A stretch of DNA of 64,000 nucleotides from an uncultured Planctomycetales bacterium (GTDB lineage Bacteria; Omnitrophota; Gorgyraeia; Gygaellales; Profunditerraquicolaceae), in the NCBI GenBank assembly GCA_964354795.1, contig CAYHBB010000037.1:46197-110196 (forward strand), written 5' to 3'. A program made the translations under genes and the position numbers. How positions within the stretch are numbered: position 1 is the first letter of the stretch; every line of letters begins with the position of its first letter. The notes below the pieces were generated by a model, which worked only from the letters and a program-made list of their open reading frames with translations, was not told the DNA's origin and searched no databases. Below, piece after piece: positions 32,144 through 48,188 of the stretch.

Positions 32144-33052
32144 TCACCCGCGAATCTGAGCAGGCAGTTGTCGATCACAGTAAAACCGCTCTAATCCCTG
32201 TTCGACCGTTGGAAGCGCCATGCCTAATGCTTGGCTAAGTTTCAATGGCAACAAACCCAGATTCTTGGAACGCCGCACCTTAAGCGGGAATTGATCAACT
32301 GATACCGGTTCGATTAGATTCTCATCTAGACCAAACAACCGGGCGACTAGCCGAAACAGGTCATATTTGGAAATACTGTTCGCGGAAGCAAAATTAAAAA
32401 TCCCTGCTAAGTCTTTCGCAATAGCCCGTGATAGAATATTGGCGAGATCAAACGTATAAAGGCTCGATGTAATAATATCCGTAAAGCCGCGGATATTCCG
32501 CCCCGCAGACAATTCATTAAACGCCCACTCGGTTAACGAAGCCTTGCCCTGCTTCAGGCTCCAGCCAAAAAAACTCGTCCGAACAATCAAGGCGTGAGGA
32601 CAACGTGCGGCTTCTCCTTCCGCTTGGAGTTTGGTTTCCGCATAATAGTTGAGCGGTCTAACTGGATCATCCTCCCTAAAATTTCCACCCTCGCCACTGT
32701 AAACCGCATCGGTCGATATAAAGACTAATTTACTTTTCTGCTCGAGTAGAGCATCCGTCAAGAACCGAGTAACCTCGATATTATCCCGGTAGGCACTCTG
32801 TCGATCAAATTCACAACAATCGATGTCAGCCAAAGCCGCACAATGGATACAAACATCTGGCCGAAATCTACGAACAACACGCTCACACTCCTGTGGACTA
32901 GTCAGGCCTGCTTTCTCGGTACGAATCCAAGAAGGATTATACGGGTGGGCATGAAACAGCCCTAAAATGTCAAATTCATCCCGAAGGGCGTAGGCTAGAC
33001 TACTCCCCAACAATCCGCTGACACCTGTTATTAAAAGTCGTTTCTTGCTCAT
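32144..33052 (-). CDS. RmlD-substrate-binding-domain SDR reductase (dTDP-4-dehydrorhamnose-reductase-like, CapF/WbjC-like)
   Basis: MSKKRLLITGVSGLLGSSLAYAL; GGAGG RBS upstream. Confidence 0.7.
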   Translation of the reverse strand: MSKKRLLITGVSGLLGSSLAYALRDEFDILGLFHAHPYNPSWIRTEKAGLTSPQECERVVRRFRPDVCIHCAALADIDCCEFDRQSAYRDNIEVTRFLTDALLEQKSKLVFISTDAVYSGEGGNFREDDPVRPLNYYAETKLQAEGEAARCPHALIVRTSFFGWSLKQGKASLTEWAFNELSAGRNIRGFTDIITSSLYTFDLANILSRAIAKDLAGIFNFASANSISKYDLFRLVARLFGLDENLIEPVSVDQFPLKVRRSKNLGLLPLKLSQALGMALPTVEQGLERFYCDRQLPAQIRG

Positions 33053-33157: not shown

Positions 33158-34189
33158 TTATTCCGGCACATCGTCCATGGACCAACGGGAATCCTCAATA
33201 GCATAATCGTCTGCGATCTGTTCAACCAGTTTCTTAAGATCCGAAACAGAAAGCCACGCGTCATTATCGCCGGAAGTATACAAGAACCCTTCCGGACATA
33301 CGCGCCCTTTGCCCTTGACCAGCTCTTTGCGCAGGTCAGTATTAGACTGAACCACGAAACAATCCCTGAACATGACGGCATTACGCGCCTCGTCCTCACT
33401 AATAAGAGTCTCGTGGATCTTTTCGCCGGGCCGAATCCCGACAATCTCAACTTTACACTTAGGCCCTATGGACTTGGCGAGGTCTACAATCTTCATAGAC
33501 GGGATTCGCGGCACAAAGATCTCGCCGCCTTTCATGCGTTTTAATGATTCCAAAACAAAATAGACCGACTGGTCGAGTGTGATCCAAAAACGAGTCATGC
33601 GCTCATCTGTGATAGGTAACACGCCCGTCTTTAAACGCTCCTTAAAGAACGGCACAACCGACCCCCGACTGCCCAAAACATTGCCATAACGTACAACCGC
33701 AAAGCGCGTTTCGCCTTCCGCGGCCGAAAATCCTGCTGCTGTAAACAGCTTATCGGAACACAGCTTGGTAGCCCCGTAAAGATTGATCGGATTGCAAGCC
33801 TTATCGGTCGATAAAGCCACGACTCTCTTGACTTTACAATGGATCGCCGCATCGATAATGTTCATGGCCCCTAAAACATTGGTCTTAATATATTCTTCCG
33901 GGTTGCGTTCCGCCGCCGGGACCTGTTTCAGGGCAGCGGCGTGAATGACATAATCAACTCCCTTAAACACGCTCATCAAGCGGTCTTTATCGCGCACATC
34001 CCCCAAGACATACTGAATGCACGGATATTTATGCGGGTTCCACTTCTGGGCCATCTCGAATTGTTTTAGCTCATCGCGGCTGAAAATAATAATCCGCTTC
34101 GGCTTATATTGCGCAAGCACAATTTGAAGCATTTTTTTACCGAATGACCCTGTGCCGCCAGTCACCAAAATAGTCTTGTTATTAAGCAT
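33158..34189 (-). CDS. UDP-GlcNAc 4,6-dehydratase (inverting; PseB/FlaA1/CapE/WbjB-like polysaccharide biosynthesis protein)
   Basis: KTILVTGGTGSFGKKM ... YVLGDVRDKDRL ... HAAALKQVP ... NVLGAMNIIDAA. Confidence 0.8.
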   Translation of the reverse strand: MLNNKTILVTGGTGSFGKKMLQIVLAQYKPKRIIIFSRDELKQFEMAQKWNPHKYPCIQYVLGDVRDKDRLMSVFKGVDYVIHAAALKQVPAAERNPEEYIKTNVLGAMNIIDAAIHCKVKRVVALSTDKACNPINLYGATKLCSDKLFTAAGFSAAEGETRFAVVRYGNVLGSRGSVVPFFKERLKTGVLPITDERMTRFWITLDQSVYFVLESLKRMKGGEIFVPRIPSMKIVDLAKSIGPKCKVEIVGIRPGEKIHETLISEDEARNAVMFRDCFVVQSNTDLRKELVKGKGRVCPEGFLYTSGDNDAWLSVSDLKKLVEQIADDYAIEDSRWSMDDVPE

Positions 34190-34257: not shown

Positions 34258-35373
34258 TTAATTTAAGACCGAAAGAACCATGCCGCGCACCATCGAAGCA
34301 ATAGCCGGTGAAGCGGTAAGGCCGGGAGATTCGATACCGATCAAACTTATCAATCCCCGTAAATTATTTTCGGTCTCATCTTTTACTACAAAATCCCTCA
34401 CTTGCTCTCCGTAACCATAAAGTTTAGGCCGGATACCCGCTTGATCAGGAATTAAATGTTCTTCTTGAAGACTAGGCAATAATTTTGCGGCACCCATGTA
34501 AAAATCACGTTTTTTATTTTCATCGACCTTATAGTCGATTGTCTCAACGTATTCTACATCGGGCCCAAAGCGAAGCCGGCCCGCCAAGTTGAGGGTAGCA
34601 TGAACCCCTAATCCAACTAGCTCCTCATGCGGAACAGGATATACAAGCCTATTGACCGGAGAAGGCATATGATATGAAAAATAGGTACCTTTGCAAAACT
34701 TGATTTTATATTTACTCTCTTTTATATTTACTCCCGCTAGTTCTGCGACCCTATCGCCGAACAATCCCGCGCAATTGATAAGGATATGGGTTTTGAACAA
34801 AAACTCGTCTTCGTTAACGCCAACTACAAAACCATCCCCTATTTTTTCCACCTTGGTAACCTCGCTTTTAAAGGCAAAGATAACCCCGCGATCCCTTGCG
34901 GAATCGTAATAGTGCTTCATTAACGAATGAGAGTCAACGATGCCGGTATTAGGCGAATAAATCGCTTTTACAGCTTTAATATTCGGCTCAAGCTTTGCAA
35001 CGTCATTTGCCCCTAGGAGAGTCAGGCCGTTACCGCAATTTCTTTTGCCTTTCTCAAAAAGATCCTCAAGAGCAGCAACCTCATCTTTCTCAGTAGCGAC
35101 AATAAGCTTTCCTATCCGCTTATGGGGGATATTGAATCTTTCACAGAGCTCATATATTTTCTTCGCGCCCTCAACGCATAAACGCGCTTTCAAAGAGCCC
35201 ATAGGATAATAGATCCCGGAATGAATGACTTCACTGTTACGACTGCTTGTTTCCTGGCCAAAAGTACTATTTCTTTCCAGTACTACAATCCGCTCATAGC
35301 TCTCTGAAAGCTTTGCGGCGATAGCTAAACCTATGACACCAGCACCAATAATAGTGATATTTAATTTTTCCAT
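34258..35373 (-). CDS. FAD-dependent oxidoreductase (DAO family, LhgO-like)
   Basis: N-terminal IIGAGVIGLAIAAKL dinucleotide-binding motif. Confidence 0.65.
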   Translation of the reverse strand: MEKLNITIIGAGVIGLAIAAKLSESYERIVVLERNSTFGQETSSRNSEVIHSGIYYPMGSLKARLCVEGAKKIYELCERFNIPHKRIGKLIVATEKDEVAALEDLFEKGKRNCGNGLTLLGANDVAKLEPNIKAVKAIYSPNTGIVDSHSLMKHYYDSARDRGVIFAFKSEVTKVEKIGDGFVVGVNEDEFLFKTHILINCAGLFGDRVAELAGVNIKESKYKIKFCKGTYFSYHMPSPVNRLVYPVPHEELVGLGVHATLNLAGRLRFGPDVEYVETIDYKVDENKKRDFYMGAAKLLPSLQEEHLIPDQAGIRPKLYGYGEQVRDFVVKDETENNLRGLISLIGIESPGLTASPAIASMVRGMVLSVLN

Positions 35374-35399: not shown

Positions 35400-35765
35400 T
35401 TATTTTGTTTCGTTAATTGTGTGATTGTTTCCGTTGCCGTTACCGTTGACGACAATCTTTTCCCATTCCTCTTTCATCTGGTTATACTCTTCCTCTTTCT
35501 TTTTTAAGAAAAGCTCCATCAGGTTCATCTTATGCTCAAGGCCTTCCTTGGTAAGATAATAGTGAATTTTGCTGATTTTTCCGGATTTGGTGCTGAAATT
35601 CTTGGCTTTGATCAAGCCTTTTTCGAAAAGTGCTTTGAGGAGGTAGTTGGTCTTGCCGAGTGAGATTCCCAGCTTATCAGAGAGCTCGCGCTGGGTCAAA
35701 TCCGGATCAGATTCGATGTGCCTGATTAGGTTTAAAGTCTCTTCTTTGGGGGGTTGTTCAAACAT
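35400..35765 (-). CDS. Winged-helix (MarR-like) transcriptional regulator with an Asn/Gly low-complexity tail
   Basis: LTQRELSDKLGISLGKTNYLLKALFEKGLIK wHTH. The track start at 35792 is TTG inside a palindrome; ATG at 35765 preferred. Confidence 0.5.
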   Translation of the reverse strand: MFEQPPKEETLNLIRHIESDPDLTQRELSDKLGISLGKTNYLLKALFEKGLIKAKNFSTKSGKISKIHYYLTKEGLEHKMNLMELFLKKKEEEYNQMKEEWEKIVVNGNGNGNNHTINETK

Positions 35766-35785
35766 TGAACAAATATAACATACAA

Positions 35786-35813
35786 ACAGCAAATGTCAAG
35801 GTGATTTTGCTGT
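35786..35813 (-). promoter_or_regulatory. 8-bp-stem palindrome ACAGCAAA-N12-TTTGCTGT just upstream of the wHTH regulator start; candidate operator
   Basis: Inverted repeat read directly from the sequence. Confidence 0.3.
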
Positions 35814-35955: not shown

Positions 35956-37191
35956 CTACTTTGACGCCCTTCCTTGGCTAATAATCTGCTTAAACAAAGC
36001 ATTACTTAATATCCCCTCTGCCACGCGCTCATGCCCTAGCGCTGTCCAGTGACCATCAAAATCATAATACAATGCTTCTTGGCTATGTTTTAATAAATAT
36101 GGCCATAGATTTAGGAAATTTACGTCATTTGTCCGAGCATACGATTCAATCATCTCAAACGGTACCGACGAATCATAAAGCTCGCCCTCCTTAAGCTGGC
36201 AGGCACCCCTTCCTTCTTTCCAAGCATCCTTACTTACCTGATGGCCAAGGGGGAATAAAGCAAGCATAAATTCACTTCCGCTAGCTTCTGAAACTTCTTT
36301 TATTTTTTTAATCCACTTACTTGAATTATTCCAATAGTATTGAGTGACTTTATTATCGACATTATCCCTAAAGATAAAATACGGGTCTAATTCAGCGCTT
36401 TGGATCGTCGGCTTATCTGCGATCAGTTTTTTTACAGATTTACCCTGAAGAATGCAGCCAATATAATTCTTTATCCCGACTAATCGTATTTTCTGGAACG
36501 ACTTGCTTAGTTTGTTATAAATATGAGAGAAAAAATGGAAATTACTCCTGAGCTGCAGCAAATAATCAGGATGATTGTTAATGTAAAAAGGATTGCAGGC
36601 CACTATCTCATTGTTTTTATCTTTTATCCCATTTTTCTCATATTTAAAATCTTCCGTTAAATCTAAAAAGTTATAAAAAAGAATCACCAGGTTAGGAGAG
36701 TAACTCACCATTTTCTTATTAAGTAACAGATATTCAAGAATAGGCGAATAACTGACAACCCCGCAGTTAATTACTTCGTATTTCTTAGTAGCTGAGGGGT
36801 TGTTTAACTTCTGCTCAAGTAAATAGCAAAAATTTTCCTGGTCATTTACGGCAGTGCCAAAAACAAAAGAATCTCCGAGAACAAGAATGCGGTAGGTCCC
36901 TTGCGGTTTATTTATAGAGTATTCTTTTCCTCTTAATCCCTGACAATTAATTGAAAACGAAGTTGGAAATCCTGCAAACATCTCTGTTACTTTGATATTT
37001 GGGGGATATGAATGGTGGAAGATTGGATCAGGCCTGCCCATATAAATATCCATGGTAAAAGCAGGAACTTTTGGCCTCACTAATCGGAAAATAACTTCTC
37101 CGACGACAAAAACACAGAGAATAACCGATATAAACACCATAATCAACCTAAATAATACTATCTTCTTTTTACTAAGTGGCGGATGTGCCAT
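35956..37191 (-). CDS. Membrane-anchored SGNH/GDSL hydrolase (polysaccharide O-acyl-esterase or acyltransferase-like)
   Basis: N-terminal TM helix, GDS block YRILVLGDSFVFGTA, DxxH block DFDGHWTALGHE. Start moved to ATG 37191 because the track start overlaps a terminator hairpin. Confidence 0.6.
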   Translation of the reverse strand: MAHPPLSKKKIVLFRLIMVFISVILCVFVVGEVIFRLVRPKVPAFTMDIYMGRPDPIFHHSYPPNIKVTEMFAGFPTSFSINCQGLRGKEYSINKPQGTYRILVLGDSFVFGTAVNDQENFCYLLEQKLNNPSATKKYEVINCGVVSYSPILEYLLLNKKMVSYSPNLVILFYNFLDLTEDFKYEKNGIKDKNNEIVACNPFYINNHPDYLLQLRSNFHFFSHIYNKLSKSFQKIRLVGIKNYIGCILQGKSVKKLIADKPTIQSAELDPYFIFRDNVDNKVTQYYWNNSSKWIKKIKEVSEASGSEFMLALFPLGHQVSKDAWKEGRGACQLKEGELYDSSVPFEMIESYARTNDVNFLNLWPYLLKHSQEALYYDFDGHWTALGHERVAEGILSNALFKQIISQGRASK

Positions 37192-37207
37192 ATGACGCCT
37201 TTTACTA

Positions 37208-37250
37208 CAAATAAAAGGGTACACTCTCCGTATTTCGAAAAGTGTACCCC
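37208..37250 (-). terminator. Rho-independent terminator downstream of gap
   Basis: Minus-strand GGGTACACT-N15-AGTGTACCC followed by TTTTATTTGT. Confidence 0.55.
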
Positions 37251-37269: not shown

Positions 37270-38394
<1,125 letters not shown>

Positions 38395-38437: not shown

Positions 38438-39433
38438 TTACGCGTCTCTGAGGTATTTTGCGGCCAATTCAGGCGGGGTAGCAACGAGGTAAAACCCGGA
38501 GCCCCATTCAAAACCTGCAGTCCGTGTAAGCTTTGGCATGAACTCAATATGCCAATGATAACCTTCCATTGCCCCATCTCCGTTTACCGGAGCTGAGTGC
38601 AAAATATAATTATACGAAACATCCGGGAACAATTTCTTTAATTTTGTCACGATGTCGCGCAAAATCTGGGCCAGCGACGGGATCTCTTCAGGAGGCATGT
38701 GCGAGAAATTACCATTATGTTTCTTGGGGATTATCCAGATCTCAAACGGAAAGCGCGAAACAAACGGGCAAAAAGCCAGAAAATGCTTATTTTCCATGAC
38801 CACGCGCTCTGCTTCCTGAGTCTCCTGCCTGATAACATCGCAGAAAATACAACGCTCGCGGTATTCAAAATAATTTTGCGCGCCCTTGATCTCTTCCGCG
38901 GCACTCTTAGGAATCATAGGAAGCGCGATGAGCTGTGTGTGCGGATGCTCTAGTGACGCACCTGCTGCCGCGCCAAAATTCTTAAAAACCATGATATATT
39001 TAAAACGCTTATCTTTTGCCAAATCCAATGCCCGACGGCAATACATATTCAGAAAATTCTCAACCTCATGATTAAGTAAATCACAAATATCCTTCTGATG
39101 ATACGGAGTCTCGATCAAAACCTCATGTGCTCCCACGCCATTAGACATATCATACATCCCAAGGCCGCGGCGTTCGATATCTCCCTCCACCTGAAGCGCA
39201 GGGAACTTATTAGCCACGACTCTCACCTGCCAGCCTGAACTATTGGGCTGAGTATGCGAATCGCGGATGGCTTCGATTTCCGGCGGAGTCATAGACTCAT
39301 TGCCGTAACAAAACGGACAAGTCCCGCCCATATAGACCTGACGCTCATAATCATACTGGTCAGGCTTATGCGGATGGTCAGTGTCGACGATAACCCAACG
39401 TCCGCCTATAGGATCCCTTCTTAATTCCGACAT
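38438..39433 (-). CDS. galT: Galactose-1-phosphate uridylyltransferase family (class I GalT / HIT-like), canonical active site
   Basis: Zn motif CPFCYGNE, active-site HPHTQ. Confidence 0.8.
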   Translation of the reverse strand: MSELRRDPIGGRWVIVDTDHPHKPDQYDYERQVYMGGTCPFCYGNESMTPPEIEAIRDSHTQPNSSGWQVRVVANKFPALQVEGDIERRGLGMYDMSNGVGAHEVLIETPYHQKDICDLLNHEVENFLNMYCRRALDLAKDKRFKYIMVFKNFGAAAGASLEHPHTQLIALPMIPKSAAEEIKGAQNYFEYRERCIFCDVIRQETQEAERVVMENKHFLAFCPFVSRFPFEIWIIPKKHNGNFSHMPPEEIPSLAQILRDIVTKLKKLFPDVSYNYILHSAPVNGDGAMEGYHWHIEFMPKLTRTAGFEWGSGFYLVATPPELAAKYLRDA

Positions 39434-40462
39434 TTAAACCTTTACCTCTCTTAGGAACTTCGCCGCATCTTCCGGAGCAAGCGGGCAGATGTAAAACCCG
39501 GTACCCCACTCAAATCCAGCCACTCGGGTAAGACGAGGCATTATCTCAATGTGCCAGTGAAAATCATTGTCCACACTCTTCCAGTAGTTCCCTTTAGTCT
39601 GACGCCTGAAAGGAGCGGTGTGAATCACGTAATTATACGGAGGATCGTTTAGACCGATTTTTAGCTTAGATAATACCACTTTCATGATACTGCTTAAGCC
39701 CATACGGCTAGCCATGTCAATACTGGTAAAATCCGGGGAATGCTTTTTGGGAAGAATCCAGACTTCAAAGGGAAAACGCGAAGCGAAAGGTGCCACCGCG
39801 ATATACCCGTCGATATCGGCAATAAGCCGATCCTTGGAAGACAGCTCCTGTTTGATCATATCGCAAAACGCGCAGCGCTCATGAAAATCATAGTAGGCGC
39901 GGGCACCTGATAACTCCTCTTTCACGCGCTTTGGATTTACGGGTGTGGCGATAAGCTGGGAACGGGAATGCTTGACTTTGCCTGCCCCGGATTCCACGCC
40001 GTGATTCTTAAAAACCAGGACATATTTAAAACGGCTATCTTTTTCAAGATCGCCGATCCTGTCAATATAACAGCTGATGACCTTTAATATCTGGGCCTCG
40101 CTTAAATCCGACATATTGTCGATATGCTGATTGGTCTCGACGACGATTTCATGGGCACCGATGCCATTCATCAGGTCATAAATGCCCTTGCCGCGGCGGT
40201 CAAGCTCGCCTTCTATGCGTAGGAATGGAGCAATGCTGGGCACAACCCTTAATTCCCAGCCGGGAGTGTTGCGGGGAGTGAATTTCGGCCTTAAAGAGTA
40301 GATTTCGGGGGGAGTTTTAGACTCATTGCCTTCGCAAAACGGGCATGGCTCGCCGCCGAGGGGCTCTTTTTCCGGTCCGGTAAACTGGTCCGGCTTTCTG
40401 GCGCGCTCAGTGGCGATAATAACCCATCTTCCGATAATAGGATCTTTGCGTAATTCAGGCAT
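39434..40462 (-). CDS. GalT-family paralog with nucleophile His replaced (HSRSQ instead of HPHxQ); possible pseudoenzyme or altered chemistry
   Basis: CPFCEGNE Zn motif retained; aligned active-site block KVKHSRSQLIATP. Confidence 0.75.
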   Translation of the reverse strand: MPELRKDPIIGRWVIIATERARKPDQFTGPEKEPLGGEPCPFCEGNESKTPPEIYSLRPKFTPRNTPGWELRVVPSIAPFLRIEGELDRRGKGIYDLMNGIGAHEIVVETNQHIDNMSDLSEAQILKVISCYIDRIGDLEKDSRFKYVLVFKNHGVESGAGKVKHSRSQLIATPVNPKRVKEELSGARAYYDFHERCAFCDMIKQELSSKDRLIADIDGYIAVAPFASRFPFEVWILPKKHSPDFTSIDMASRMGLSSIMKVVLSKLKIGLNDPPYNYVIHTAPFRRQTKGNYWKSVDNDFHWHIEIMPRLTRVAGFEWGTGFYICPLAPEDAAKFLREVKV

Positions 40463-40600: not shown

Positions 40601-41122
40601 CTATCTTTTTACCCTGAATCCATCAACCACCCGCTTCGCCTCATCAGGAGTAATCCTCAGCTGACGAATCGCTTCAAATATATCGTGAATATTTTTATCA
40701 TGCTTTTCGACCTTATGCTCAAGCTGATTTAACTTAGCAGCAAGCTCCTTATGGGTAGACAAAATCTGACGTAGCCTTACGAACGCGCGCATAACAGCAA
40801 TATTAACCTGAATAGCGTTTTCACTATTAAGAACGGATGACAACATTGCTGTTCCTTGCTCCGTAAAAGCGTAAGGCAAGGTAGAAGAATGTTTCAAAGG
40901 ACTGAACCGGTCGCAAATTGCGACCAGTTCGATTTTCTCAGCCGGCGTAAGCTGAAACATAAAATCTTCCGGAAATCTCCTAATATTCCTTTTCACCTGC
41001 TCATTCAACCTTTTCGTCGGAACACGATAAAGCTCGGCTAAATCTCGATCGAGCATCACCTTCCTTCCCCTTAACACAAAGATGCGTGTAGCTACTGCTT
41101 CTGCTGGGACTAAATTTGACAT
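40601..41122 (-). CDS. ORF6N (KilA-N-related) domain DNA-binding protein, phage antirepressor-like
   Basis: N-terminal ~110 aa (RIFVLRGRKVMLDRDLAELY ... VMRAFVRLR) matches the ORF6N pattern; AAAGGAGG SD upstream. Confidence 0.7.
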   Translation of the reverse strand: MSNLVPAEAVATRIFVLRGRKVMLDRDLAELYRVPTKRLNEQVKRNIRRFPEDFMFQLTPAEKIELVAICDRFSPLKHSSTLPYAFTEQGTAMLSSVLNSENAIQVNIAVMRAFVRLRQILSTHKELAAKLNQLEHKVEKHDKNIHDIFEAIRQLRITPDEAKRVVDGFRVKR

Positions 41123-41187
41123 GGCTTCCTCCTTTTACTTTAATAGACGTAAAAGATGGCGAAATCTAACGAAAATATATGTAAAAT

Positions 41188-41236
41188 AAAGGGGACGGTT
41201 CTAATTTATGGTGAAATAAACAGAACCGTCCCCTTT
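41188..41236. terminator. Perfect 15-bp-stem hairpin AAAGGGGACGGTTCT-N19-AGAACCGTCCCCTTT flanked by T/A runs; bidirectional terminator-like. Copy 2 of the shared motif
   Basis: Seen directly in the sequence. Confidence 0.55.
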
Positions 41237-41261
41237 ACTTATTATTTTGCAGACCTCTATT

Positions 41262-41492
41262 TTATTTCACAAAATTCCCCTTCTTACTACTAACCGCCTT
41301 AGTAAAGATACATATAATTCGATAGACAACATACAATAAAACAAAGAAAATCAATATTAAATACAAAGGAATACCTAGCAATTCTACACCACCCATTAAA
41401 AGTGGATCATTATAAAAACATCTTGCTAATAGAAAAGCAAATAGAAAAAAAATCATTATAATTAACACCTCTCTAATTATACCTCTTCTCAT
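41262..41492 (-). CDS. Small 2-TM membrane protein (76 aa) immediately downstream of the Rhs toxin; candidate immunity protein
   Basis: Two hydrophobic helices; position 53 nt after the toxin stop; very AT-rich. Confidence 0.45.
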   Translation of the reverse strand: MRRGIIREVLIIMIFFLFAFLLARCFYNDPLLMGGVELLGIPLYLILIFFVLLYVVYRIICIFTKAVSSKKGNFVK

Positions 41493-41544
41493 ATTTAATC
41501 CCTTATATAATCCTGTAAATATAAAACCTGATCATATTGTCTAA

Positions 41545-42457
41545 TTAATGTGCATAATGATCAATACCTATAGGCGTAGTTCCTAAGTTTTCTGGCGCAT
41601 TCCCACCTGCCCCATAAATAACGGTATTTACCGCAAAATTACTATTGCAATTATAAAAACTATATGGCGTCCCTACCCACGCAGCTTTAAAAAGATTAAC
41701 AGAGTTATTATAGCCAGCCTGGCTTACCGAAACATTAGACTCTAGAGTAAGCTGAGGGTATTTACTAATATAAACTGATGTTCTCCCAAAAGAACCTTCG
41801 CCATTTAACTCAATAAGTTTTGAGTGAGCATCTGGTCCCATCTCAAAGTGATCAACCTCGCCCCTAATATATCTATGTCTAAATAAGCCAGGCTTATCAG
41901 GCGGACCTAAAGGCCGAGACCCAACTATCGCCGTAGTTTTATCAGCCCTATTTACGCTTAACGCATGAAGTCTCTTTATACCTGACTGATACGCTTGCTC
42001 CCTGCTCATTCCGTGTGCAAAATTCTGCATACCGCTTAAATAACTACCTTCAATTAATCCTCCTACCGCTGCCCCTATGCCAAAGCCTATACCACCAGCT
42101 TTCATCGCGTCACCAAAACTTTCACCAGAACCTAATGCTCCACCAAAGCTACCCCCAAAACCTCCTATGCCCATCTCAGTAGCGCCTACAAGAAAACCAC
42201 CCCCAAAGCTAAAAGCCTTCTTCCCCAGAAAACCAGCAACCTTATCCCCTAAAGCACCACCAGCCCAACCTCCCAAAATACCACCTGCTAACCCACCAGC
42301 AAATCCACCCCAATTCCCTGTCTTAACCGCTGACCCCAAGGAACTAAAGAAATTAAATATTTGGAAACCTACCATCATATTACCGCCACTAAGCACAGTA
42401 CCAACTATTCCCGCAACAACACCAACAATTGCTCCCCAGAACTTGCTAAACCAACTA
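41545..42457 (-). other. C-terminal ~302-aa region after the RHS-core DPSGH motif: glycine-zipper-rich segment (GGFAGGLAGGILGGWAGG...) plus ~160-aa unassigned putative toxin domain
   Basis: Position relative to the DPxGH autoproteolysis-type motif at 42458..42472; lower GC than the RHS body by eye. Confidence 0.5.
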
Positions 42458-45400
42458 TGCCCCGATGGATCCACATAATTTATCGGATTATTCCGACAAT
42501 AACTGTATCGATTAAGACTTTGCGGATCATAAGGCGCCTGGACGATAGTATCTGCAGTAACAAACCGTCCGAGTTGGGCGTCGTAGTAACGGGCGCCATA
42601 GAAGTACAGCCCGCAGGAATCGAGCTCTTTGCCGGTAAACTTATACTTAGGATCATGAGTACCAGACTGGCGATAAACCGAACCATATGGAGTAAACTCG
42701 GTAAAACCAACCTGCTTGCCGGTGGCATCCGTAACTACATTACTTGAGCCAAGATGGTCGGAGTGATAATAAAACTTATTACCCGTGGACTCGACTGCAC
42801 AAATACGGTTTGAGCCGCTAAAAATGTACTTGGTGGTCTTGCCGGAAGAATCTATCTCAAAGAGCGAACCAATATAAACGTTAGAACCTGAAGAGGTACT
42901 CTTCTTTACCCTCCCGCCATCCCCATCATAAACAAACGTAGTATTGGTAGATACACAGGAATTGCTGACCGCCCAGGTGACGCTACTTGCGCAATACAGA
43001 TAATACGCAACTCCAGGCTTAAGCGTAGTAAAATCTTTTTTCGACGAAGAGTATTCCTGATAAGCTCCGGAAGTTTTATTATAGTACAGAACCTTAGAAT
43101 AGTTAACGCCTAATTTAAGCGGTAAAAGCGCGCTCTCAACAGGCGTCTCATCTTTTTTGGGTGAGAAAATTAAGTTACACCCCGGACTTAAAGAAACCTT
43201 CTGGCTGATAGGCAAACTTCCGCTGACCGTCAAGCTCACTGAATCAGAGCTTATAATATAAATCTGATACCCTTTCCCAAAGTCAAAAGTGTTAAACTGG
43301 TCAAACTTGGAATTACCCACATAATTTTCATACTTCTTAGTTAACGGATTATACCGGGAAACCTGGTCATACTTTCCACTGATCCCGGACAAAACCGAAG
43401 CAATCTTGTTATCAACTAAACTTACCGGAAATGAAATAAAATTCCAGCCAGGATTTAGGCTTAAGGTAATAGCAGCGCTCTGTGCAACGGGAGTTGCGGA
43501 GACATTCTCTGACTTAGTTAACCGGTTTTCCGCATCATAAGTCAGCTGCACCGTACCCTTTTTAGTCATATTCCCGTTTGTGTCATACTCAATGCTAGTG
43601 CTACCATATCCAGTAACCGCGTGAGGAAGCAAACCATTCTTGCCGTAAGTCAAACTCACTCCCTCTTTACTCGTCATGTTCCCGATAGAATCATAGTTAT
43701 AGGTAAATGTGCCATAATTTCCCGCAGCAGTCACCAACCGATCCAGATCATCATAATTAAAAGACTGACTTGCGGTATTTACGTAATCGCTAAGATTCTT
43801 GATATTTCCCACGTTGTCAAACTGATAACTTAAATCCTGGATTTTTCCTAAAGGAGACACTGAATTAATATTGGAAAGCCTTAAGGTATTTGGATCATAC
43901 GCATAATTGGTCTCAACGCCATTACTATACTTGATTTTTGCAATCTGTCCCGTGACAGAATAATCAATATCGGTAATATAATTTGCTACACTTGATACGC
44001 CTTGCGGATTATACGTGTAGCTGACTATCTCTGCGTCAGGATATTTGAGGGTCAGCAACCTTCCCAACGCGTCATAAGTACGCTCAACTGAATAAGCGCC
44101 ATAGCCGTTAACGGTCTTCACTGACTTGGTCTCCCTGCCCAGATTATCATAATAAAATTCCGTCGAGCCTGACTGATCAGTGATCTTCGATAGCCGCCCC
44201 ACACAATAATTCTTCGCAACATCATCATAAACATAACTTGCCAACACCTGGCCATTAGACTGCTTACAAATCAACCGGGTAAGCGAATCATAACTAAAAG
44301 TCAAAACCTGGCCCTTGGCATCAGTCTGCTTAATAAGATTACCCATATTATCGTATTCATAATACCAAACCCCCATATCCGGATCATTCATCTTGATCTT
44401 ACGGTTCAAAGAGTCATACCAGATCTGGCTGACATTGCCCTGATTATCAGTAAGCTTGATTAAATTCCCCGCGGTATCATACTCGTAAATCGTAGTATAA
44501 GTTTGCGTACTATTGTGCTCCTCTATCTTTGTAATCCTGCCATAAGCATCATAATACTCGGTTTTATAGTGATTGTTTTCATCGGTCGCAGTTTTCTTAC
44601 CCAGTCCGTAACTTACCTTTGAAGAAGTCGAATCAGGATTCGTTGCCTGGACTAACCTACCCATAGCGTCATAACTATAGCTTGAATGCACAGTCTGAAA
44701 ACTTGGGGTGACATAATTCTCCGAAGAATTAACATAATATGAAAGATATTTTTCTTTGACCTGACCTTTAATATTATAAAGAACACTGCCTGATACAATT
44801 TGCTGGCTATCGTTTTCTGCCATGGATTTACTTTCAATCAAACGCCCCAGGCCGTCATAAAACGAATAAGCCGTATAATATTTAGGTGATGCGGAATAGT
44901 CTACTTTAACTTTCTGCGCAGTCTTTACCGGAAACACGCTTAGATTATACTCATAAAAAGAAGCGGGAGAGTTCTCGGAATCATTCGGCCCGACAACCTT
45001 AACCAACCTACCCATGGCGTCATAATAATTAGTCGAAATTAGCTTATTGGGGTCAATGGTACTTAAGGCCTGACCAGTGGCATAATTATAACTGGTAGTT
45101 ATAGCCTGGCCCAAAACATTAGAGCTCTTGACCGGATAGCTTTGCATCAAAGAATCGTATTCGGTGGTCATTGAGCGGCCCAGAGCATCTGTAGCGCGGA
45201 TAAGATTGCCATAAGAATCGTAGATGTAACTGCCGGAAATCCTACTCTCGATAAGCGTTAAAGGATTATAAAACCATACCTCCTCTTTTGTAAGCAAACC
45301 CTTGGAGGGAGATGTTTCAATTGAAACAGCATTATCGTAATAAAACCACTTTTTTGAAATAACATTGCCGGATTTATCTTTTGCATAAGCGTATTTTGGC

Positions 45401-48186
45401 GCCGACATAATCCAAGCCGGAATATTATAAACATACTCCGTAAGCGACTCCTGCTCATCACCGATTACGCTGATATCGCCGTATGAATAAACCCTTACGG
45501 GATTTCCGTAAGAATCATAATTATAAGTTACCCTGGTTTGCTTAAAATTGGCATTATTGTCGGGGTCAAAAATAAAGCTATCTGTCTGCGATTGATAAAC
45601 AAAGTTTACGCCCGGATAAATCTGAGATGACGCCCAAGTATTCTCTGTTTTTGCATACAGCTTAGCCGCAGCATCACGGATCTCCTGCTTATACATGCGG
45701 CCCTTAAGAATGCCATCCTGCTTAAAATAGTTCTCGATATAATTTCCTTCCACATCCGTAACTTTGACATAGCCAAAGCCGCGAAAATCCCGCTCAGCCG
45801 CATCGAAACATCCGTCTTTATAAGAATAGTTTGTGAAATACGCATTGCCCATTCCGTCACTTAACGCCACTTTTGAAACTACCTGTATAGCAAATGGGAG
45901 TTTTCCTGTAGTATTAGGATAGTAATTATTGTAGGCGGTAGACGGGGTATATTCGATTTGCGTTGAGCCGCCTATACCATTTGAAATATTGGTCAAAAGA
46001 TCAGCTGGCCCTGCCAGATTCAGATACGCTTTCTTGTAACCGTCTTTGGCGATACAAATATCAACCACTCCGTCGCCGTCTAAATCAGCCAGATACCTGC
46101 CTTGATCATAGCCTGAAGAATCCACAAAATCTCCGTCCGGAAGATTAAAAGAATCGTCCCTAACCCATCCTGTTCCCGTATTTATATAAACCGCATGATA
46201 TCCGGCACAAGCAATTACCAAGTCACTCAGGCCATCGCCGTTTATATCAACGATCATCCGACCTTGATCGCGTCCGGATGTGACAAATTCTCCGTCCGGC
46301 AGATTAAAAGCATCGTTCCTGGTCCAACCTGAGCCATTATTTAGATATGTGGCCTTGTAACCATCCGAAGCAATCAGAAAATCAGCTAAACCGTCGCCGT
46401 TAATATCAACCAGACGCCTTCCCCCGTCAGCCGGAACATCCACCCTTCCCACATAAGCCTGATTAGTGTAACCAAAAAAGCGAACATAATAACCATCGGG
46501 CGGATTCCAACGCGAATCCTGCTGCCAGCCGCTTCCGGTATTAATATAGGTATTTATCGTTGTGGGTATCACATCCAGGGGCCGGCTACTCCACTGCATC
46601 CTTTCGATAGCAATCGACAGGTCATTCAAACCATCACCGTTTAAATCCGCAAAACGCCTACCCCCGTCTATCTTATTGCCATAAATAAAATATCCGTCCG
46701 GAAGATTCCAACGCGTATCTTGCGCCCAGCGGGGGTTCTGCGGGTCCGGATATTGAAAAACATATACATTCTTATACTGACCGGTTGAACCTGTATAAGG
46801 ATCCCAGATTGATGCCGCAAGTAACTCAGGAATGCCATCGCCTGTCAAATCCACCAACCTTCTGCCATCATCCCAGCCCTGATAAATAAAATAACCCAAT
46901 GGCACCGGCCACCAATTTGCTGAAGCGCTAAATCCGTCTTTAGAATTTAGATGTGTCGCCCGCAGCCATTGCCTGGTCGATGACTCAGCAGGATCATAGC
47001 GTGAAATCACAAAATCAAACATCCCGTCGCCGTTTAAATCATAGACTCTCCTACCCTGATCTTGAGCCCCTTTTACAAAATCTCCGTCCGGGACATGCCA
47101 TTTAGCCTGATCAGCTGACCAACTTCCCTTATTTAAGCGATACGTAAAAGTAATCGGGTTAGACGCGGTAACGCCGTCTGAGCCATATTCAGTCACTTTT
47201 GACAGAAGGCTACGCTGCGAAGAAGCGCTCGCCGTATATTCAAAAGCATATCTACGCACCAAGCTGTTATCATATAGAACCTCTATTGTTTTCAAGCGCT
47301 TGGTCGTCTTTACTTGATCACCGATTAAATAGTTTAGGGAAATATCCTCCCGGCTTTCATAATTAAACATTGCCTTATACTTTGCCGCCAAACCCATTTG
47401 CTCATTGGCAGTGTAATTGATCGCGGCTGGATACAAGCAATTATCTTCCTTAATATAGGTAATGCTTAAAGAATTGCCTTTCAGATCGACTATTTTATCC
47501 AGTGCCCAGGAGAATGTGCCTTTAGAAATAGTCAGGCGGGAATTATCCGATGAACCAAAGAAAAGTTTTACCCCTGACTTATCTGTTACTTGCCAAGAAT
47601 TATTACTGTAGGTATATTTTACGAATGAACTCTCAATTTTTGCGCGGTATTCGTTATTTCCGATGCTGACTAAATCCTCTCCGCTGGCGGTAAAAATATC
47701 CGCGGAATCATATTTTGGCACACCACGCTTGGTCGAACGTGCAATCGAGCCCAGATCTAAAGACCACCCCACCCCGACAATACCATTGCCACTATTATTG
47801 TTGTAGGTAATACTTAAGGGTGGTGCGATATCTCTTTTGCCTTTAGGCGTAAATATGGGAATTGTAGCCTGGGCCTTGCCGGTAAAAGGATCCGGAGAAA
47901 CCGATTCCAGGATCCGGTTAAACTTATCGCTTGGGGTGTGAGTGTCTTTCTGAAAGAAGCTGCTGACAGTCGAAGACGGAAGCTCGCCTGCGGAAGCATA
48001 CGAAGAATCTGGGCGCTGAACCTTGCCGTGCCCGCGAATATCGGGGATTTTGCCAAGTGCTTCGTAATTGACCTTGGATTGGGGGCTCCTGGAAATACCC
48101 TTAGCAAAAGCAACATCCCGGAAACACACGGTGAATAAATGTATGAATACTAAAATTAAGGAAAGGACTTTGAAGAATATCTTCAT
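41545..48186 (-). CDS. Giant secreted polymorphic toxin (2213 aa): Sec signal + SpvB-like domain + FG-GAP/VCBS beta-propeller repeats + RHS/YD-repeat shell with RHS-core DPxGH motif + uncharacterised C-terminal toxin domain (Tc-toxin TcB-TcC fusion-like)
   Basis: Signal peptide MKIFFKVLSLILVFIHLFTVCF...AFA. SpvB-like GNGIVGVGWSLDLGSIARSTKRGVPKYDSADIF. Six DxNGDG repeats. Many YD repeats (YEYDTAGNLIKLTD, YYEYDNMGNLIKQTD, FSYDSLTRL ...). YYHSDHLGS. Core end NPINYVDPSGHS. Confidence 0.85.
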   Translation of the reverse strand: MKIFFKVLSLILVFIHLFTVCFRDVAFAKGISRSPQSKVNYEALGKIPDIRGHGKVQRPDSSYASAGELPSSTVSSFFQKDTHTPSDKFNRILESVSPDPFTGKAQATIPIFTPKGKRDIAPPLSITYNNNSGNGIVGVGWSLDLGSIARSTKRGVPKYDSADIFTASGEDLVSIGNNEYRAKIESSFVKYTYSNNSWQVTDKSGVKLFFGSSDNSRLTISKGTFSWALDKIVDLKGNSLSITYIKEDNCLYPAAINYTANEQMGLAAKYKAMFNYESREDISLNYLIGDQVKTTKRLKTIEVLYDNSLVRRYAFEYTASASSQRSLLSKVTEYGSDGVTASNPITFTYRLNKGSWSADQAKWHVPDGDFVKGAQDQGRRVYDLNGDGMFDFVISRYDPAESSTRQWLRATHLNSKDGFSASANWWPVPLGYFIYQGWDDGRRLVDLTGDGIPELLAASIWDPYTGSTGQYKNVYVFQYPDPQNPRWAQDTRWNLPDGYFIYGNKIDGGRRFADLNGDGLNDLSIAIERMQWSSRPLDVIPTTINTYINTGSGWQQDSRWNPPDGYYVRFFGYTNQAYVGRVDVPADGGRRLVDINGDGLADFLIASDGYKATYLNNGSGWTRNDAFNLPDGEFVTSGRDQGRMIVDINGDGLSDLVIACAGYHAVYINTGTGWVRDDSFNLPDGDFVDSSGYDQGRYLADLDGDGVVDICIAKDGYKKAYLNLAGPADLLTNISNGIGGSTQIEYTPSTAYNNYYPNTTGKLPFAIQVVSKVALSDGMGNAYFTNYSYKDGCFDAAERDFRGFGYVKVTDVEGNYIENYFKQDGILKGRMYKQEIRDAAAKLYAKTENTWASSQIYPGVNFVYQSQTDSFIFDPDNNANFKQTRVTYNYDSYGNPVRVYSYGDISVIGDEQESLTEYVYNIPAWIMSAPKYAYAKDKSGNVISKKWFYYDNAVSIETSPSKGLLTKEEVWFYNPLTLIESRISGSYIYDSYGNLIRATDALGRSMTTEYDSLMQSYPVKSSNVLGQAITTSYNYATGQALSTIDPNKLISTNYYDAMGRLVKVVGPNDSENSPASFYEYNLSVFPVKTAQKVKVDYSASPKYYTAYSFYDGLGRLIESKSMAENDSQQIVSGSVLYNIKGQVKEKYLSYYVNSSENYVTPSFQTVHSSYSYDAMGRLVQATNPDSTSSKVSYGLGKKTATDENNHYKTEYYDAYGRITKIEEHNSTQTYTTIYEYDTAGNLIKLTDNQGNVSQIWYDSLNRKIKMNDPDMGVWYYEYDNMGNLIKQTDAKGQVLTFSYDSLTRLICKQSNGQVLASYVYDDVAKNYCVGRLSKITDQSGSTEFYYDNLGRETKSVKTVNGYGAYSVERTYDALGRLLTLKYPDAEIVSYTYNPQGVSSVANYITDIDYSVTGQIAKIKYSNGVETNYAYDPNTLRLSNINSVSPLGKIQDLSYQFDNVGNIKNLSDYVNTASQSFNYDDLDRLVTAAGNYGTFTYNYDSIGNMTSKEGVSLTYGKNGLLPHAVTGYGSTSIEYDTNGNMTKKGTVQLTYDAENRLTKSENVSATPVAQSAAITLSLNPGWNFISFPVSLVDNKIASVLSGISGKYDQVSRYNPLTKKYENYVGNSKFDQFNTFDFGKGYQIYIISSDSVSLTVSGSLPISQKVSLSPGCNLIFSPKKDETPVESALLPLKLGVNYSKVLYYNKTSGAYQEYSSSKKDFTTLKPGVAYYLYCASSVTWAVSNSCVSTNTTFVYDGDGGRVKKSTSSGSNVYIGSLFEIDSSGKTTKYIFSGSNRICAVESTGNKFYYHSDHLGSSNVVTDATGKQVGFTEFTPYGSVYRQSGTHDPKYKFTGKELDSCGLYFYGARYYDAQLGRFVTADTIVQAPYDPQSLNRYSYCRNNPINYVDPSGHSWFSKFWGAIVGVVAGIVGTVLSGGNMMVGFQIFNFFSSLGSAVKTGNWGGFAGGLAGGILGGWAGGALGDKVAGFLGKKAFSFGGGFLVGATEMGIGGFGGSFGGALGSGESFGDAMKAGGIGFGIGAAVGGLIEGSYLSGMQNFAHGMSREQAYQSGIKRLHALSVNRADKTTAIVGSRPLGPPDKPGLFRHRYIRGEVDHFEMGPDAHSKLIELNGEGSFGRTSVYISKYPQLTLESNVSVSQAGYNNSVNLFKAAWVGTPYSFYNCNSNFAVNTVIYGAGGNAPENLGTTPIGIDHYAH

Positions 48187-48188
48187 AG

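Follow-up and report, generated by a model that had tools for sequence, protein, structure and literature searches.

The class I galactose-1-phosphate uridylyltransferases (GalT) and their relatives act as dimers, with each active site assembled from two chains. The cis part of a site comprises the HxH nucleophile loop, an essential Ser, and an Asn-containing nucleotide strand; the trans part, contributed by the other chain, consists of the Arg-x-x-Arg arm at the N-terminus and the GFE segment at the C-terminus. E. coli GalT and human GALT are homodimers that share one fold and one ping-pong apparatus, made up of His166, Ser161 (the conserved alpha-phosphate Ser), Gln168, and Asn77 together with the trans residues Arg28, Arg31, and 311-323. 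Human GALT receives Arg48 "from the opposite chain" as seen from Gln188, and in E. coli GalT with bound UDP-Glc the hexose-phosphate is contacted by Arg28, Arg31, Gly159, and Ser161 (PMC5081055). Molecular dynamics on the human structure 5IN3 revealed stable intersubunit contacts (Arg48A-Phe99B, His47A-Pro100B, and Ser45A-Ala101B), a salt bridge between subunits, Asp98A-Arg51B, that persisted under some of the simulated conditions, and Glc-1-P held mainly by Arg48/Arg51 (PMC8513031). The ADP-glucose phosphorylase At5g18200 from Arabidopsis (1Z84/1ZWJ/2H39) is a dimer with its sites between the subunits, a homodimer of a single gene with two equivalent sites and His186 as nucleophile. Ap4A phosphorylases (Apa2, Rv2613c) and the DUF4931 protein BCE0241 belong to the same HIT branch and carry HxHxQ, but differ in architecture and are monomeric or otherwise organised.

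The window analysed here, a stretch of 64,000 nucleotides, contains two adjoining members of this family on the reverse strand. The upstream gene, UP (39434..40462), encodes 342 aa and the downstream gene, DN (38438..39433), 331 aa. An earlier note on this DNA had described two GalT-family genes with zero spacing, and this description held: the UP stop abuts the DN start in the same frame (TAA|ATG, 39431..39436, reverse strand), an arrangement consistent with translational coupling, and full-length comparison of the proteins gives 46% identity (E 3e-117). In public records both genes are named "galactose-1-phosphate uridylyltransferase" or "DUF4931". The Pfam models GalP_UDP_transf and GalP_UDP_tr_C match both above cut-off. 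NCBIfam TIGR00209 (cut-off 102.1) accepts DN (138.2) and places UP below the threshold (92.7), and both genes fall far below the cut-off of 448 for NF008724 (DN 155, UP 113). The GalT label is therefore right at the superfamily level, but both genes lie much nearer to ADP-glucose phosphorylase (UP E 3.5e-71, DN E 1.6e-61) than to E. coli GalT (UP E 1.4e-18, DN E 2.1e-26; E 1e-18 to 1e-26 for the E. coli and human enzymes), and unlike GalT and GALT they have no Leloir-pathway context in the window. E. coli GalT, the reference chosen in the earlier note, was imprecise in this respect, since the pair is of the ADP-glucose phosphorylase type, which is linked to glycogen genes.

The structural model of UP leads to the same assignment. 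An AF2 model of UP built on a diverse alignment of 139 sequences has the two-half-barrel GalT fold (pLDDT 95.4, pTM 0.93). An earlier model from 38 sequences (mostly 74-94% identical, plus DN at 47%) reached pLDDT 61, left the N-terminal half unmodelled, and was discarded. Foldseek matched the UP model to 2H39, 1Z84, 6K5Z, 1HXQ, and 5IN3 (E 6e-32 to 4e-21); its best PDB matches were the ADP-glucose phosphorylase entries 2H39, 1ZWJ, and 1Z84, with TM 0.76-0.87. Matches of the window genes to the Ap4A phosphorylases and DUF4931 were weak, with TM 0.3-0.46 and Pfam Ap4A_phos_N below cut-off. Among characterised enzymes, ADP-glucose phosphorylase rather than E. coli GalT is thus the closest to both genes in sequence and in structure. 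Features shared with At5g18200 are the Zn ligands, an HSHSQ-type motif, an RxxRP arm, and the GFE segment.

The upstream copy had been noted for an HSRSQ motif in place of HPHxQ and for its CPFC motif. Both readings are correct. The motif spans UP residues 165-169 (H165-S-R167-S-Q169, 39956..39970, reverse strand), with the Arg codon CGT at 39962-39964 in the position of the nucleophile, H165 as a Zn ligand, and Q169 kept. Alignment with solved structures removed the concern that the motif had been misregistered and that a His was hidden nearby: R167 falls on the nucleophile of At5g18200, where wild-type 1Z84 reads HSHSQ and the mutant 2H39 reads HSGSQ, and with His166 of E. coli GalT. The structural Zn site is complete, with C40 and C43 of CPFC (40334..40345), H113 (40124-40126), and H165 in UP, and C39, C42, H112, and H163 in DN. 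Other cis elements of UP have been remodelled. In the loop G159-A-G-K-V-K164 (39971..39988, reverse strand) the essential Ser, S161 in E. coli, is replaced by Gly161, one residue is inserted, and basic residues are gained. The segment S76-I-A-P-F80 (40223..40237, reverse strand) stands in place of the invariant N-K-[FY]-P-A strand, which serves nucleotide binding and arm docking; the Asn lost here is the counterpart of N77 in E. coli. The canonical trans arm is kept (E19-R20-A-R-K23-P24, 40391..40408, reverse strand); its R20 and K23 align with R28 and R31 of E. coli, the counterparts of human R48 and R51. With S161 and H166 of E. coli falling on G161 and R167 of UP, this alignment confines all clade-specific changes to a single one of the two composite sites.

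The substitution recurs across the homologues of UP. Among the best 120 database homologues of UP, 119 could be read at the nucleophile position, and these have Arg (110) or Lys (9). R167 is present in 48 of the 50 orthologues from GTDB species, and two orthologues (L030 and L042) keep His167. R20 is found in 50/50, R23 in 47/50, and S76 in 48/50; position 161 is Gly in 36/50 and Ser or Thr in only 13/50, position 164 is basic in 41/50, and Q169, N153, and G159 are retained. The two His-retaining genes were considered as functional intermediates with live second sites, and this was rejected because both already show the S76 change and the loop insertion, and R20 is already missing from their partners. 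Mean identity over 946 genome pairs was 63.4% for UP-UP against 59.1% for DN-DN, and at least 90% conservation was reached in 139 columns of UP against 95 of DN, although the genome loci were retrieved with UP-derived patterns and peptides, which may inflate UP conservation. A slower evolution of UP relative to DN was for this reason softened to UP being at least as conserved; identity ranges were alike in the two unbiased top-120 lists, one for each gene. This record of conservation indicates that UP is under strong constraint, that is, purifying selection, despite its lost catalytic residues. A further suggestion is that UP is a decaying pseudogene or that its Arg stems from an error in sequencing or assembly. 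Nothing but the single substitution speaks for this, and it is refuted by a full-length reading frame, by Arg or Lys in all 119 readable homologues, by conservation at least equal to that of DN, and by a near-identical gene (99%) in the independent MAG L003.

In DN the situation is the opposite. The catalytic loop is canonical (G-A-S-L-E-H-P-H-T-Q, 38933..38962, reverse strand), with Ser160, the Zn ligand His163, and the nucleophile His165, and the strand N75-K-F-P-A79 (39197..39211, reverse strand) provides what would be the canonical partner surface for the UP arm. Across DN orthologues, in alignment numbering, N76 is conserved in 46/46, S161 in 47/47, and H167 in 47/47. The features of the covalent-acceptor His and the alpha-phosphate Ser are present in DN and absent in UP. 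The earlier note had recorded that the downstream copy keeps HPHTQ. This motif (38933-38947) is indeed kept, but the invariant Arg20/Arg23 arm is lost: the corresponding segment reads D19-H20-P-H-K23-P24 (39362..39379, reverse strand), with both arginines gone and the net charge inverted. Only about 1 of 46 orthologues has Arg at position 20, with an arm entropy of 2.5-3.4 bits, as does 1 of 116 close homologues from a sample of 120. In the subclade of the window the arm is conserved as DTDHPHKP, with H20 in 112/116. Independent sampling of 120 homologues for each gene gave the same pattern of loss in UP and DN. DN keeps F317/E318/Y324, its trans residues at the C-terminus, which makes the degeneration of the two genes imperfectly complementary.

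Cis and trans roles were transferred to UP and DN by homology from the human and E. coli enzymes. On that assignment the losses are reciprocal: UP is without the cis His, Ser, and Asn76, and DN is without the trans Arg-x-x-Arg arm. Because the two proteins have lost different halves of a shared active site, they are most likely functional only when paired with each other. A canonical site would be out of reach for a UP2 or a DN2 homodimer; only cis elements from DN combined with trans elements from UP would provide one. We propose, with a probability of roughly 0.7, that UP and DN form an obligate heterodimeric nucleotidyltransferase of the ADP-glucose-phosphorylase/class I GalT type with one catalytic site, DN being the catalytic subunit and UP its non-catalytic partner. 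In the live site, DN His165 would be the covalent nucleotidyl acceptor, assisted by DN Ser160, Asn75, and Gln167, and Arg20/Arg23 of UP would hold the hexose-1-phosphate. The symmetry-related second site, formed by the UP cis elements and the DN arm, would be non-catalytic with its charges swapped. The arm charge is +2.0 in single-copy relatives and in UP and -0.68 in DN; the loop charge is -0.53 in single-copy relatives, +2.4 in UP, and -0.98 in DN. This swap, about +2.4 on the UP loop and -0.7 on the DN arm, would favour pairing as a heterodimer over a homodimer. A duplication, now found throughout the Omnitrophota-type lineages sampled, would have preceded the reciprocal losses. UP would then have lost its cis set through His to Arg, Ser to Gly with the one-residue insertion, and Asn76 to Ser, and DN its trans arm through Arg20 to His or a variable residue and Arg23 to Lys or a variable residue.

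Two readings dispense with the heterodimer. UP might be an independent enzyme, merely co-transcribed with DN, whose Arg serves a non-covalent, single-displacement, or phosphorylase-type reaction or another substrate. Its fold and Zn site are intact and R167, S168, and Q169 are conserved, but N76, S161, and A80 are lost as well and the nucleotide strand is degenerate. Moreover, UP conserves a trans arm that is useful only to the site of a partner, a UP homodimer would set arms of +2 against loops of +2.4, and the loss of the DN arm would be left without explanation. No His-independent class I GalT was found in the literature searched, and the whole reading is improbable. Still less probable are two separate homodimeric enzymes with diverged specificities, that is, subfunctionalised paralogues. 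Tandem paralogues of differing specificity are common, and a double-module protein with two His motifs, P0147, exists in the wider family. Against this, a DN homodimer would be without Arg20/Arg23 in both sites, residues that are invariant in 32/32 single-copy relatives and present in the E. coli, human, Arabidopsis, and P. aerophilum enzymes, and a UP homodimer would be without a nucleophile in both.

Natural fusion proteins also support the heterodimer. Three members of one fusion lineage (P0121, P0391, and P0392), 52-56% identical to each other, join a UP-like module 1 to a DN-like module 2. Module 1 has the invariant ERAKRP arm and the C-terminal half, without CPFC and without HxH; module 2 starts at CPFC, is without the arm, and has GASLEHxHTQ. 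The lineage thereby keeps exactly the complementary parts of UP and DN. With neither CPFC nor HxH, the UP-like module has a degenerate N-terminal half-domain throughout, and its cis site is gone. Of the possibilities raised for the Arg-bearing copy in the earlier note, the fusions and the degenerate nucleotide-binding strand of UP leave little support for a non-covalent mechanism or for a phosphorylase-like reaction at the Arg site. The other suggestion, a pseudoenzyme or partner subunit, has gained strong support, as UP has lost the nucleophile, Ser, and Asn and gained a loop insertion, yet is constrained and lies upstream of DN.

The heterodimer may also be as proposed with a second site that has acquired a role of its own. 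UP S76, the basic loop, and R167, together with the DN arm, could constitute a regulatory site that binds an anionic effector (phosphate or a sugar-phosphate) and controls the live site, a tentative reading that we regard as unlikely but the strongest of the alternatives. The UP-specific residues are fixed rather than drifting, as seen in S76 (48/50), R167 (48/50), and the basic residue at 164 (41/50), and the pocket stays positively charged, the charge having passed from the arm in trans to the loop in cis. Retention of Q169, N153, and G159 in UP points in the same direction. Conservation of S76 and R167 at 96%, with that of the DN arm in its subclade, suggests that the second site may have a function and is not merely dead. 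However, the DN arm and UP positions 77, 78, 80, and 160-163 are variable across deeper lineages (entropy 1.4-3.4 bits), no ligand can be named, and in the fusion lineage the UP-like N-terminal half-domain, with its Zn ligands and loop, is deleted or degraded, so that the second site is dispensable there. Slightly more doubtful is the version in which the Arg pocket of UP is a new, subunit-autonomous anion or sugar-phosphate site, either allosteric on the catalytic site or with its own His-independent reaction. With a functional pocket of this kind, the pair would be a regulated or a bifunctional enzyme at the entry to glycogen and glycolysis in Omnitrophota.

The gene neighbourhood agrees with co-inheritance of the two subunits of the proposed heterodimer. 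UP lies directly upstream of DN throughout. Of the 47 tandem pairs identified, 33 have their genes spaced by -14 to +9 nt, and three UP-only loci end at contig edges; the exception is L083, where no DN lies within 4 kb of the UP-like gene. The order priA-fmt-UP-DN-gap extends across about 47 Omnitrophota-type loci. The downstream neighbour, gap (GAPDH; 37270..38349, reverse strand), is conserved in 42/50 tandem loci, and the upstream neighbour, fmt (methionyl-tRNA formyltransferase; 49265..50203, reverse strand), in 43/50; in the window an inserted island separates fmt from UP. Counts from a scan for promoters and terminators were no higher than in shuffled controls and were uninformative on operon structure.

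Single-copy bacterial and archaeal members (e.g. L050-L082, and the fusions P0168, P0173, and P0226) are 52-55% identical to UP and DN and have the same domain organisation. Unlike the pair between fmt and gap, they consist of one gene with all cis and trans residues intact: R20, R23, N76, A80, S/T161, and H167 are invariant in the 32 relatives from other phyla. These members probably resemble the ancestral state. In a neighbour-joining tree the UP clade had support of 84/100 and the DN clade of 58/100, and the tree did not settle whether the two are sisters, as expected of a single duplication. The gene for glycogen synthase (glgA) is adjacent in 22/32 single-copy relatives and a GH57 gene in 10/32, with some members fused to these genes; neither was found near the UP-DN pair in the 50 Omnitrophota loci. 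Adjacency and fusion of the subfamily to glycogen synthase and GH57 point only indirectly to a possible activity of the At5g18200 type for the pair (ADP-glucose + Pi <-> Glc-1-P + ADP, with ping-pong kinetics). From the observed sequence patterns, their conservation, the synteny, the fusion proteins, and the fold, we infer that UP and DN associate physically as a heterodimer with a single live site, and that the chemistry would be NDP-glucose + Pi <-> glucose-1-P + NDP, as a part of alpha-glucan metabolism.

Complementary losses across a shared interface site offer a testable bacterial case of the passage from a homodimer to an obligate two-gene heterodimer, in which the charge swap should enforce heteromer specificity and the fusion lineage serves as a built-in control. 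The natural Arg and the arm changes parallel the interplay of Q188R and Arg48 in human galactosaemia. The name GalT probably denotes the wrong reaction and does not fit UP taken as an enzyme by itself, a misnaming that affects metabolic reconstructions of galactose use and glycogen in Omnitrophota. The GalT-like ADP-glucose-phosphorylase subfamily, linked to glgA and GH57 in many anaerobic phyla, may represent an ATP-sparing route to or from NDP-glucose. The literature searched contained no prior account of a GalT/HIT pseudoenzyme or heterodimer, of Omnitrophota glycogen, or of glgA-galT linkage, an absence that does not prove novelty.

Obligate heteromers that include a catalytically impaired paralogue and have active sites at their interface are known from Trypanosoma brucei, in deoxyhypusine synthase (DHSc/DHSp) and in AdoMetDC with its prozyme. 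The logic is the same, with duplication, catalytic loss in one copy, and interface-shared sites, in unrelated folds and organisms. The pair described here would differ in that the lesions lie in both copies and are complementary, the subunits are encoded by a bacterial operon, and a fusion lineage exists. Compared with At5g18200, where one gene supplies both halves of two equivalent sites, the locus appears to divide the same apparatus between two genes, one with Arg at the position of the nucleophile and the other without the arm.

The two GalT-like genes lie on the minus strand and, as the earlier note had described, abut without spacing: the upstream paralogue (UP, 342 aa) occupies 39434..40462 and the downstream one (DN, 331 aa) 38438..39433, joined by a TAA|ATG junction in identical frame. 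They share 46% identity over their full length (E 3e-117), and both match the Pfam GalT N- and C-terminal domains. The catalytic loop of DN reads G-A-S-L-E-H-P-H-T-Q, and that of UP G-A-G-K-V-K-H165-S-R167-S-Q, with CPFC retained. The motif register was set by HMMER alignments against solved structures. In these, R167 occupies the nucleophile position of E. coli GalT (His166) and of the Arabidopsis ADP-glucose phosphorylase At5g18200 (1Z84, HSHSQ; 2H39, a mutant entry, HSGSQ), and H165 that of the Zn-ligand His. All four Zn ligands are present in UP (C40, C43, H113, H165). The initial description of an HSRSQ copy with CPFC preceding an HPHTQ copy is thus accurate.

Among solved structures, both proteins are closest to At5g18200 (E 3.5e-71 for UP, 1.6e-61 for DN) and next to the archaeal 6K5Z, with E. 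coli GalT and human GALT far more distant (1e-14 to 1e-26). An AlphaFold2 model of UP, built from a diverse alignment of 139 sequences (pLDDT 95.4, pTM 0.93), has 2H39, 1ZWJ and 1Z84 as its top Foldseek matches (E about 6e-32, TM 0.76-0.87), with Ap4A phosphorylases and small HIT proteins much lower. DN scores above and UP below the cut-off of NCBIfam TIGR00209 (galT), neither comes near that of NF008724, and in public records both genes go under the name 'galactose-1-phosphate uridylyltransferase' or 'DUF4931'.

The 120 database sequences closest to UP share 74-94% identity with it and belong, wherever labelled, to Omnitrophota/Omnitrophica; H-[SATC]-[RK]-S-Q is found in all 119 that are readable. 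A locus scan with one genome per GTDB species yielded 80 loci, the best of which (99% protein identity) comes from an Omnitrophota MAG of Lac Pavin sediment (JAPLLR010000069.1) and assigns the source organism to this lineage. UP-type and DN-type genes stand in tandem in 47 loci, a count that takes in two loci fetched besides the scan, and contig ends truncate three further UP genes. Each of the other 32 loci has one canonical gene (singletons, G-A-S-L-x-H-x-H-S-Q). One of them, L048, is from a MAG labelled Omnitrophota; other labels include Anaerolineales, Verrucomicrobiota, Ratteibacteria, Margulisiibacteriota, Ignavibacteria, Zixibacteria, WOR-1/3, Thermodesulfobacteriota, Elusimicrobia, Auribacterota and a Thermoplasmata archaeon, and several loci keep the deposited label 'uncultured Planctomycetales'. 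In 34 of 48 UP orthologues R167 is encoded by CGY, a single transition from CAY. Among loci retrieved with UP-derived peptides, mean identity over 946 genome pairs is 63.4% for UP and 59.1% for DN, UP is the better-conserved copy in 86% of the pairs, and 139 columns in UP and 95 in DN are at least 90% conserved. Since such retrieval may favour UP and the unbiased top-120 lists have similar identity ranges, the safe conclusion is that UP is at least as constrained as DN. UP is not in decay, and its Arg is fixed and no accident.

Comparison of 32 singletons, 50 UP and 46-47 DN sequences (UP numbering) reveals reciprocal losses. UP alone departs from the residue common to singletons and DN at columns 76, 77, 80, 161, 163, 164 and 167, and DN alone in the N-terminal arm. 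Asn76 (32/32 singletons, 46/46 DN) is Ser in 48/50 UP; Lys77 (31/32, 44/46) is Ile, Val or Leu; Ala80 (32/32, 46/46) is Phe, Leu or Val; and Ser/Thr161 (32/32, 47/47) is Gly in 36/50. An insertion at 163 is present in UP and absent from the others, position 164, mostly Glu in singletons and DN, is Lys or Arg in 41/50 UP, and His167 (32/32, 47/47) is Arg in 48/50. The net charge of loop 160-167 is -0.53 in singletons, +2.4 in UP and -0.98 in DN. Within the arm, Arg20 is invariant in singletons (32/32) and UP (50/50) and occurs in about 1/46 DN, where His is in the majority; Arg23 (32/32 singletons; 47/50 UP, the rest Lys) is replaced in DN by Lys, Gly, Leu and others. Across arm residues 17-23, entropy is near 0 at 18, 20 and 23 in singletons and UP and reaches 2.5-3.4 bits at 17, 20, 22 and 23 in DN; the arm's net charge is +2.0 in both former groups and -0.68 in DN. 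The pattern recurs when 120 close homologues per protein are sampled independently, with R20 (120/120), S76 (117/117) and R/K at 167 (119/119) for UP, and the nucleophile His (116/116), Asn76 (120/120) and a position 20 of His (112), Asn (2), Arg (1) or Lys (1) for DN. The complementarity is only partial, because DN keeps the C-terminal trans residues F317, E318 and Y324. Two UP-clade orthologues, at loci L030 (5998-7032) and L042 (5983-7017), have His167 (HAHSQ and HAHTQ; codon CAT), with the UP-type inserted loop and S76 already present and partner DNs already without R20; they are either relics of the substitution order or reversions. In NJ bootstrap analysis the UP clade receives 84 and the DN clade 58, and UP-DN sisterhood is unsupported.

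Both class I GalTs and At5g18200 form dimers with active sites between the subunits. In the E. coli UDP-glucose complex, the hexose-phosphate is contacted by Arg28, Arg31, Gly159 and Ser161, and, seen from Gln188, human GALT Arg48 comes 'from the opposite chain' (PMC5081055); Ser161 is the conserved Ser binding the alpha-phosphate under nucleophilic attack. Simulations of human GALT started from the crystal structure gave stable intersubunit contacts (Arg48A-Phe99B, His47A-Pro100B, Ser45A-Ala101B), an intersubunit salt bridge Asp98A-Arg51B stable under some simulated conditions, and Glc-1-P held mainly by Arg48 and Arg51 (PMC8513031). By alignment, the counterparts of UP R20/K23 are R28/R31 in the E. 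coli and R48/R51 in the human enzyme, those of S76/I77 are N77/D78 and N97/D98 respectively, and that of G161 is E. coli S161. These mapped contacts point to the arm as a trans element: that of one chain would dock on the partner chain's 76-81 strand and reach into the partner's HxH site. By homology, the UP-specific (76-80, 160-167) and DN-specific (17-23) changes would then all fall in one composite site, and the other, formed by DN cis residues (N75-K-F-P-A and the HPHTQ loop) and the UP arm (E-R-x-R-K/R-P), would be canonical at every position. The nucleophile would be missing from a UP homodimer, and both arginines from both sites of a DN homodimer. Because neither would supply a complete site, and only UP:DN would, one per pair, the homology implies that the two proteins probably form a heterodimer with one complete site.

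Independent support for the heterodimer comes from gene organisation and from three proteins of about 600 aa in which both modules are fused (P0121, P0391, P0392; 52-56% mutual identity). Module 1 has an invariant arm (M-S-E-L-R-K...V-E-R-A-K-R-P) and retains its C-terminal half (...L-T-x-V-A-G-F-E-W-G-T-G...), without CPFC or HxH. Some 18 linker residues later, module 2 starts directly at C-P-F-C, and is therefore arm-less, and bears N-K-F-P-A-L and G-A-S-L-E-H-x-H-T-Q. With the UP cis site and the DN arm discarded, this lineage keeps exactly the parts that the heterodimer model needs. The P0121 gene (L086 5001-6800, GCA_003558915.1) has gap-pgk-tpi downstream and a phosphoglucomutase gene upstream. 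In the tandem loci, UP stop and DN start are -14 to +9 nt apart in 33/47 pairs, with fmt upstream in 43/50 and gap downstream in 42/50. The context MGDG-synthase-priA-fmt-UP-DN(-gap) is shared by the deeply divergent His-less variants P0125 (HVRSQ), P0149 (HSRSH) and P0183 (RVSSH).

Other arrangements are found in the wider family. P0147 (871 aa) has two complete GalT-like modules in one chain, HxHSQ in both, and is a separate duplication that stayed two-sited. At L083 (1704-2708), an orphan UP-like gene (P0127; motif HCSSR, arm GRRR) follows fmt; no DN-type gene was found within 4 kb downstream, where an uncalled 850-nt gap follows P0127. The nucleophile His is absent from about 15 of 150 family representatives (50%-identity clusters), with V, Y, C, I, L and S as replacements; these include P0130, P0133, P0143, P0145, P0189, P0193, P0203, P0233 and P0256, and some also lack the Arg arm. 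Further His-less lineages or pairings may exist.

In the window, a variable island (40601-49255) separates fmt from UP. It comprises an ORF6N-domain gene (40601..41122), a 2213-aa Tc-toxin/RHS protein with SpvB, TcdB_mid, FG-GAP and RHS repeats (41545..48186) and two small ORFs without Pfam match (48189..48722, 48815..49255). In a closely related MAG (L003), an unrelated 2.3-kb segment replaces this 8.7-kb island between flanks of 89-94% DNA identity; in most other Omnitrophota loci fmt and UP lie within about 300 nt. For gap, the listed ORF start is GTG 38349, but a 15-letter protein stretch starts at an ATG near 38322. Between the DN stop and this ATG lies a GC-rich hairpin (CCGGCCTT...AAGGCCGG, 38354-38375) that may be an attenuator or RNA-stability element. 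The minus strand carries all substantial ORFs of the 64 kb, over which GC skew stays negative from end to end (cumulative -4.7). A low-GC stretch at about 12-32 kb (0.34-0.41) is followed by two sugar-nucleotide epimerase/dehydratase-type genes, RmlD-like (32144..33052) and Polysacc_synt_2 (33158..34189), and by FAD oxidoreductase (34258..35373), MarR-like (35400..35792) and SGNH/AlgX-like (35956..37224) genes; together they look like a large polysaccharide-synthesis region.

Singletons have glgA as a neighbour in 22/32 loci and a GH57 gene in 10/32, and GlgA-GalT-like and GH57-GalT-like fusions occur among family representatives (P0168, P0173, P0226). Outside Omnitrophota (L050-L082) the subfamily is a glycogen-cluster gene, and this adjacency and the whole-gene fusions suggest that singletons provide an under-studied Glc-1-P/NDP-glucose route, which may replace or complement GlgC. 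The same linkage and the relationship to At5g18200 lead to a putative role to which we give about even odds: within alpha-glucan metabolism, the pair would interconvert glucose-1-phosphate and an NDP-glucose (probably ADP-glucose) in a ping-pong reaction via DN His165. The Omnitrophota pair has departed from the glgA neighbourhood: glgA stands beside it in 0/50 loci, and it precedes gap, as the fusion lineage precedes gap-pgk-tpi. Glycogen synthesis has been reported as encoded in Omnitrophota MAGs (PMC8542988).

The second composite site, of UP cis residues and the DN arm, is probably non-catalytic, and it is not merely drifting. S76 and R167 are each fixed at 96% in UP, whose loop is basic; the DN arm is acidic or neutral and is conserved as D-T-D-H-P-H-K-P within the window's subclade. 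About two to three positive charges have left the trans arm for the cis loop, which is read as an electrostatic latch. UP:UP would set a +2 arm against a +2.4 loop, in DN:DN both arm and loop would be negative or neutral, and UP:DN would be charge-complementary at both interfaces. The main rival holds that the second site serves as a regulatory anion-binding site; the fusion lineage, having discarded UP's cis site, has lost it, which argues that it is dispensable. An electrostatic latch would echo the Arg188-Arg48 repulsion proposed for the dominant-negative effect of Q188R in human GALT (PMC5081055).

The literature searched gave no account of a His-less GalT-family paralogue, a GalT/HIT pseudoenzyme or a heteromeric class I GalT. 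A dead paralogue that completes an interface active site is a concept familiar from other enzymes; what we rate as new is a conserved variant of a normally homodimeric enzyme, with two genes and a predicted single site, the two-gene form being present in every tandem-bearing Omnitrophota-type locus sampled.
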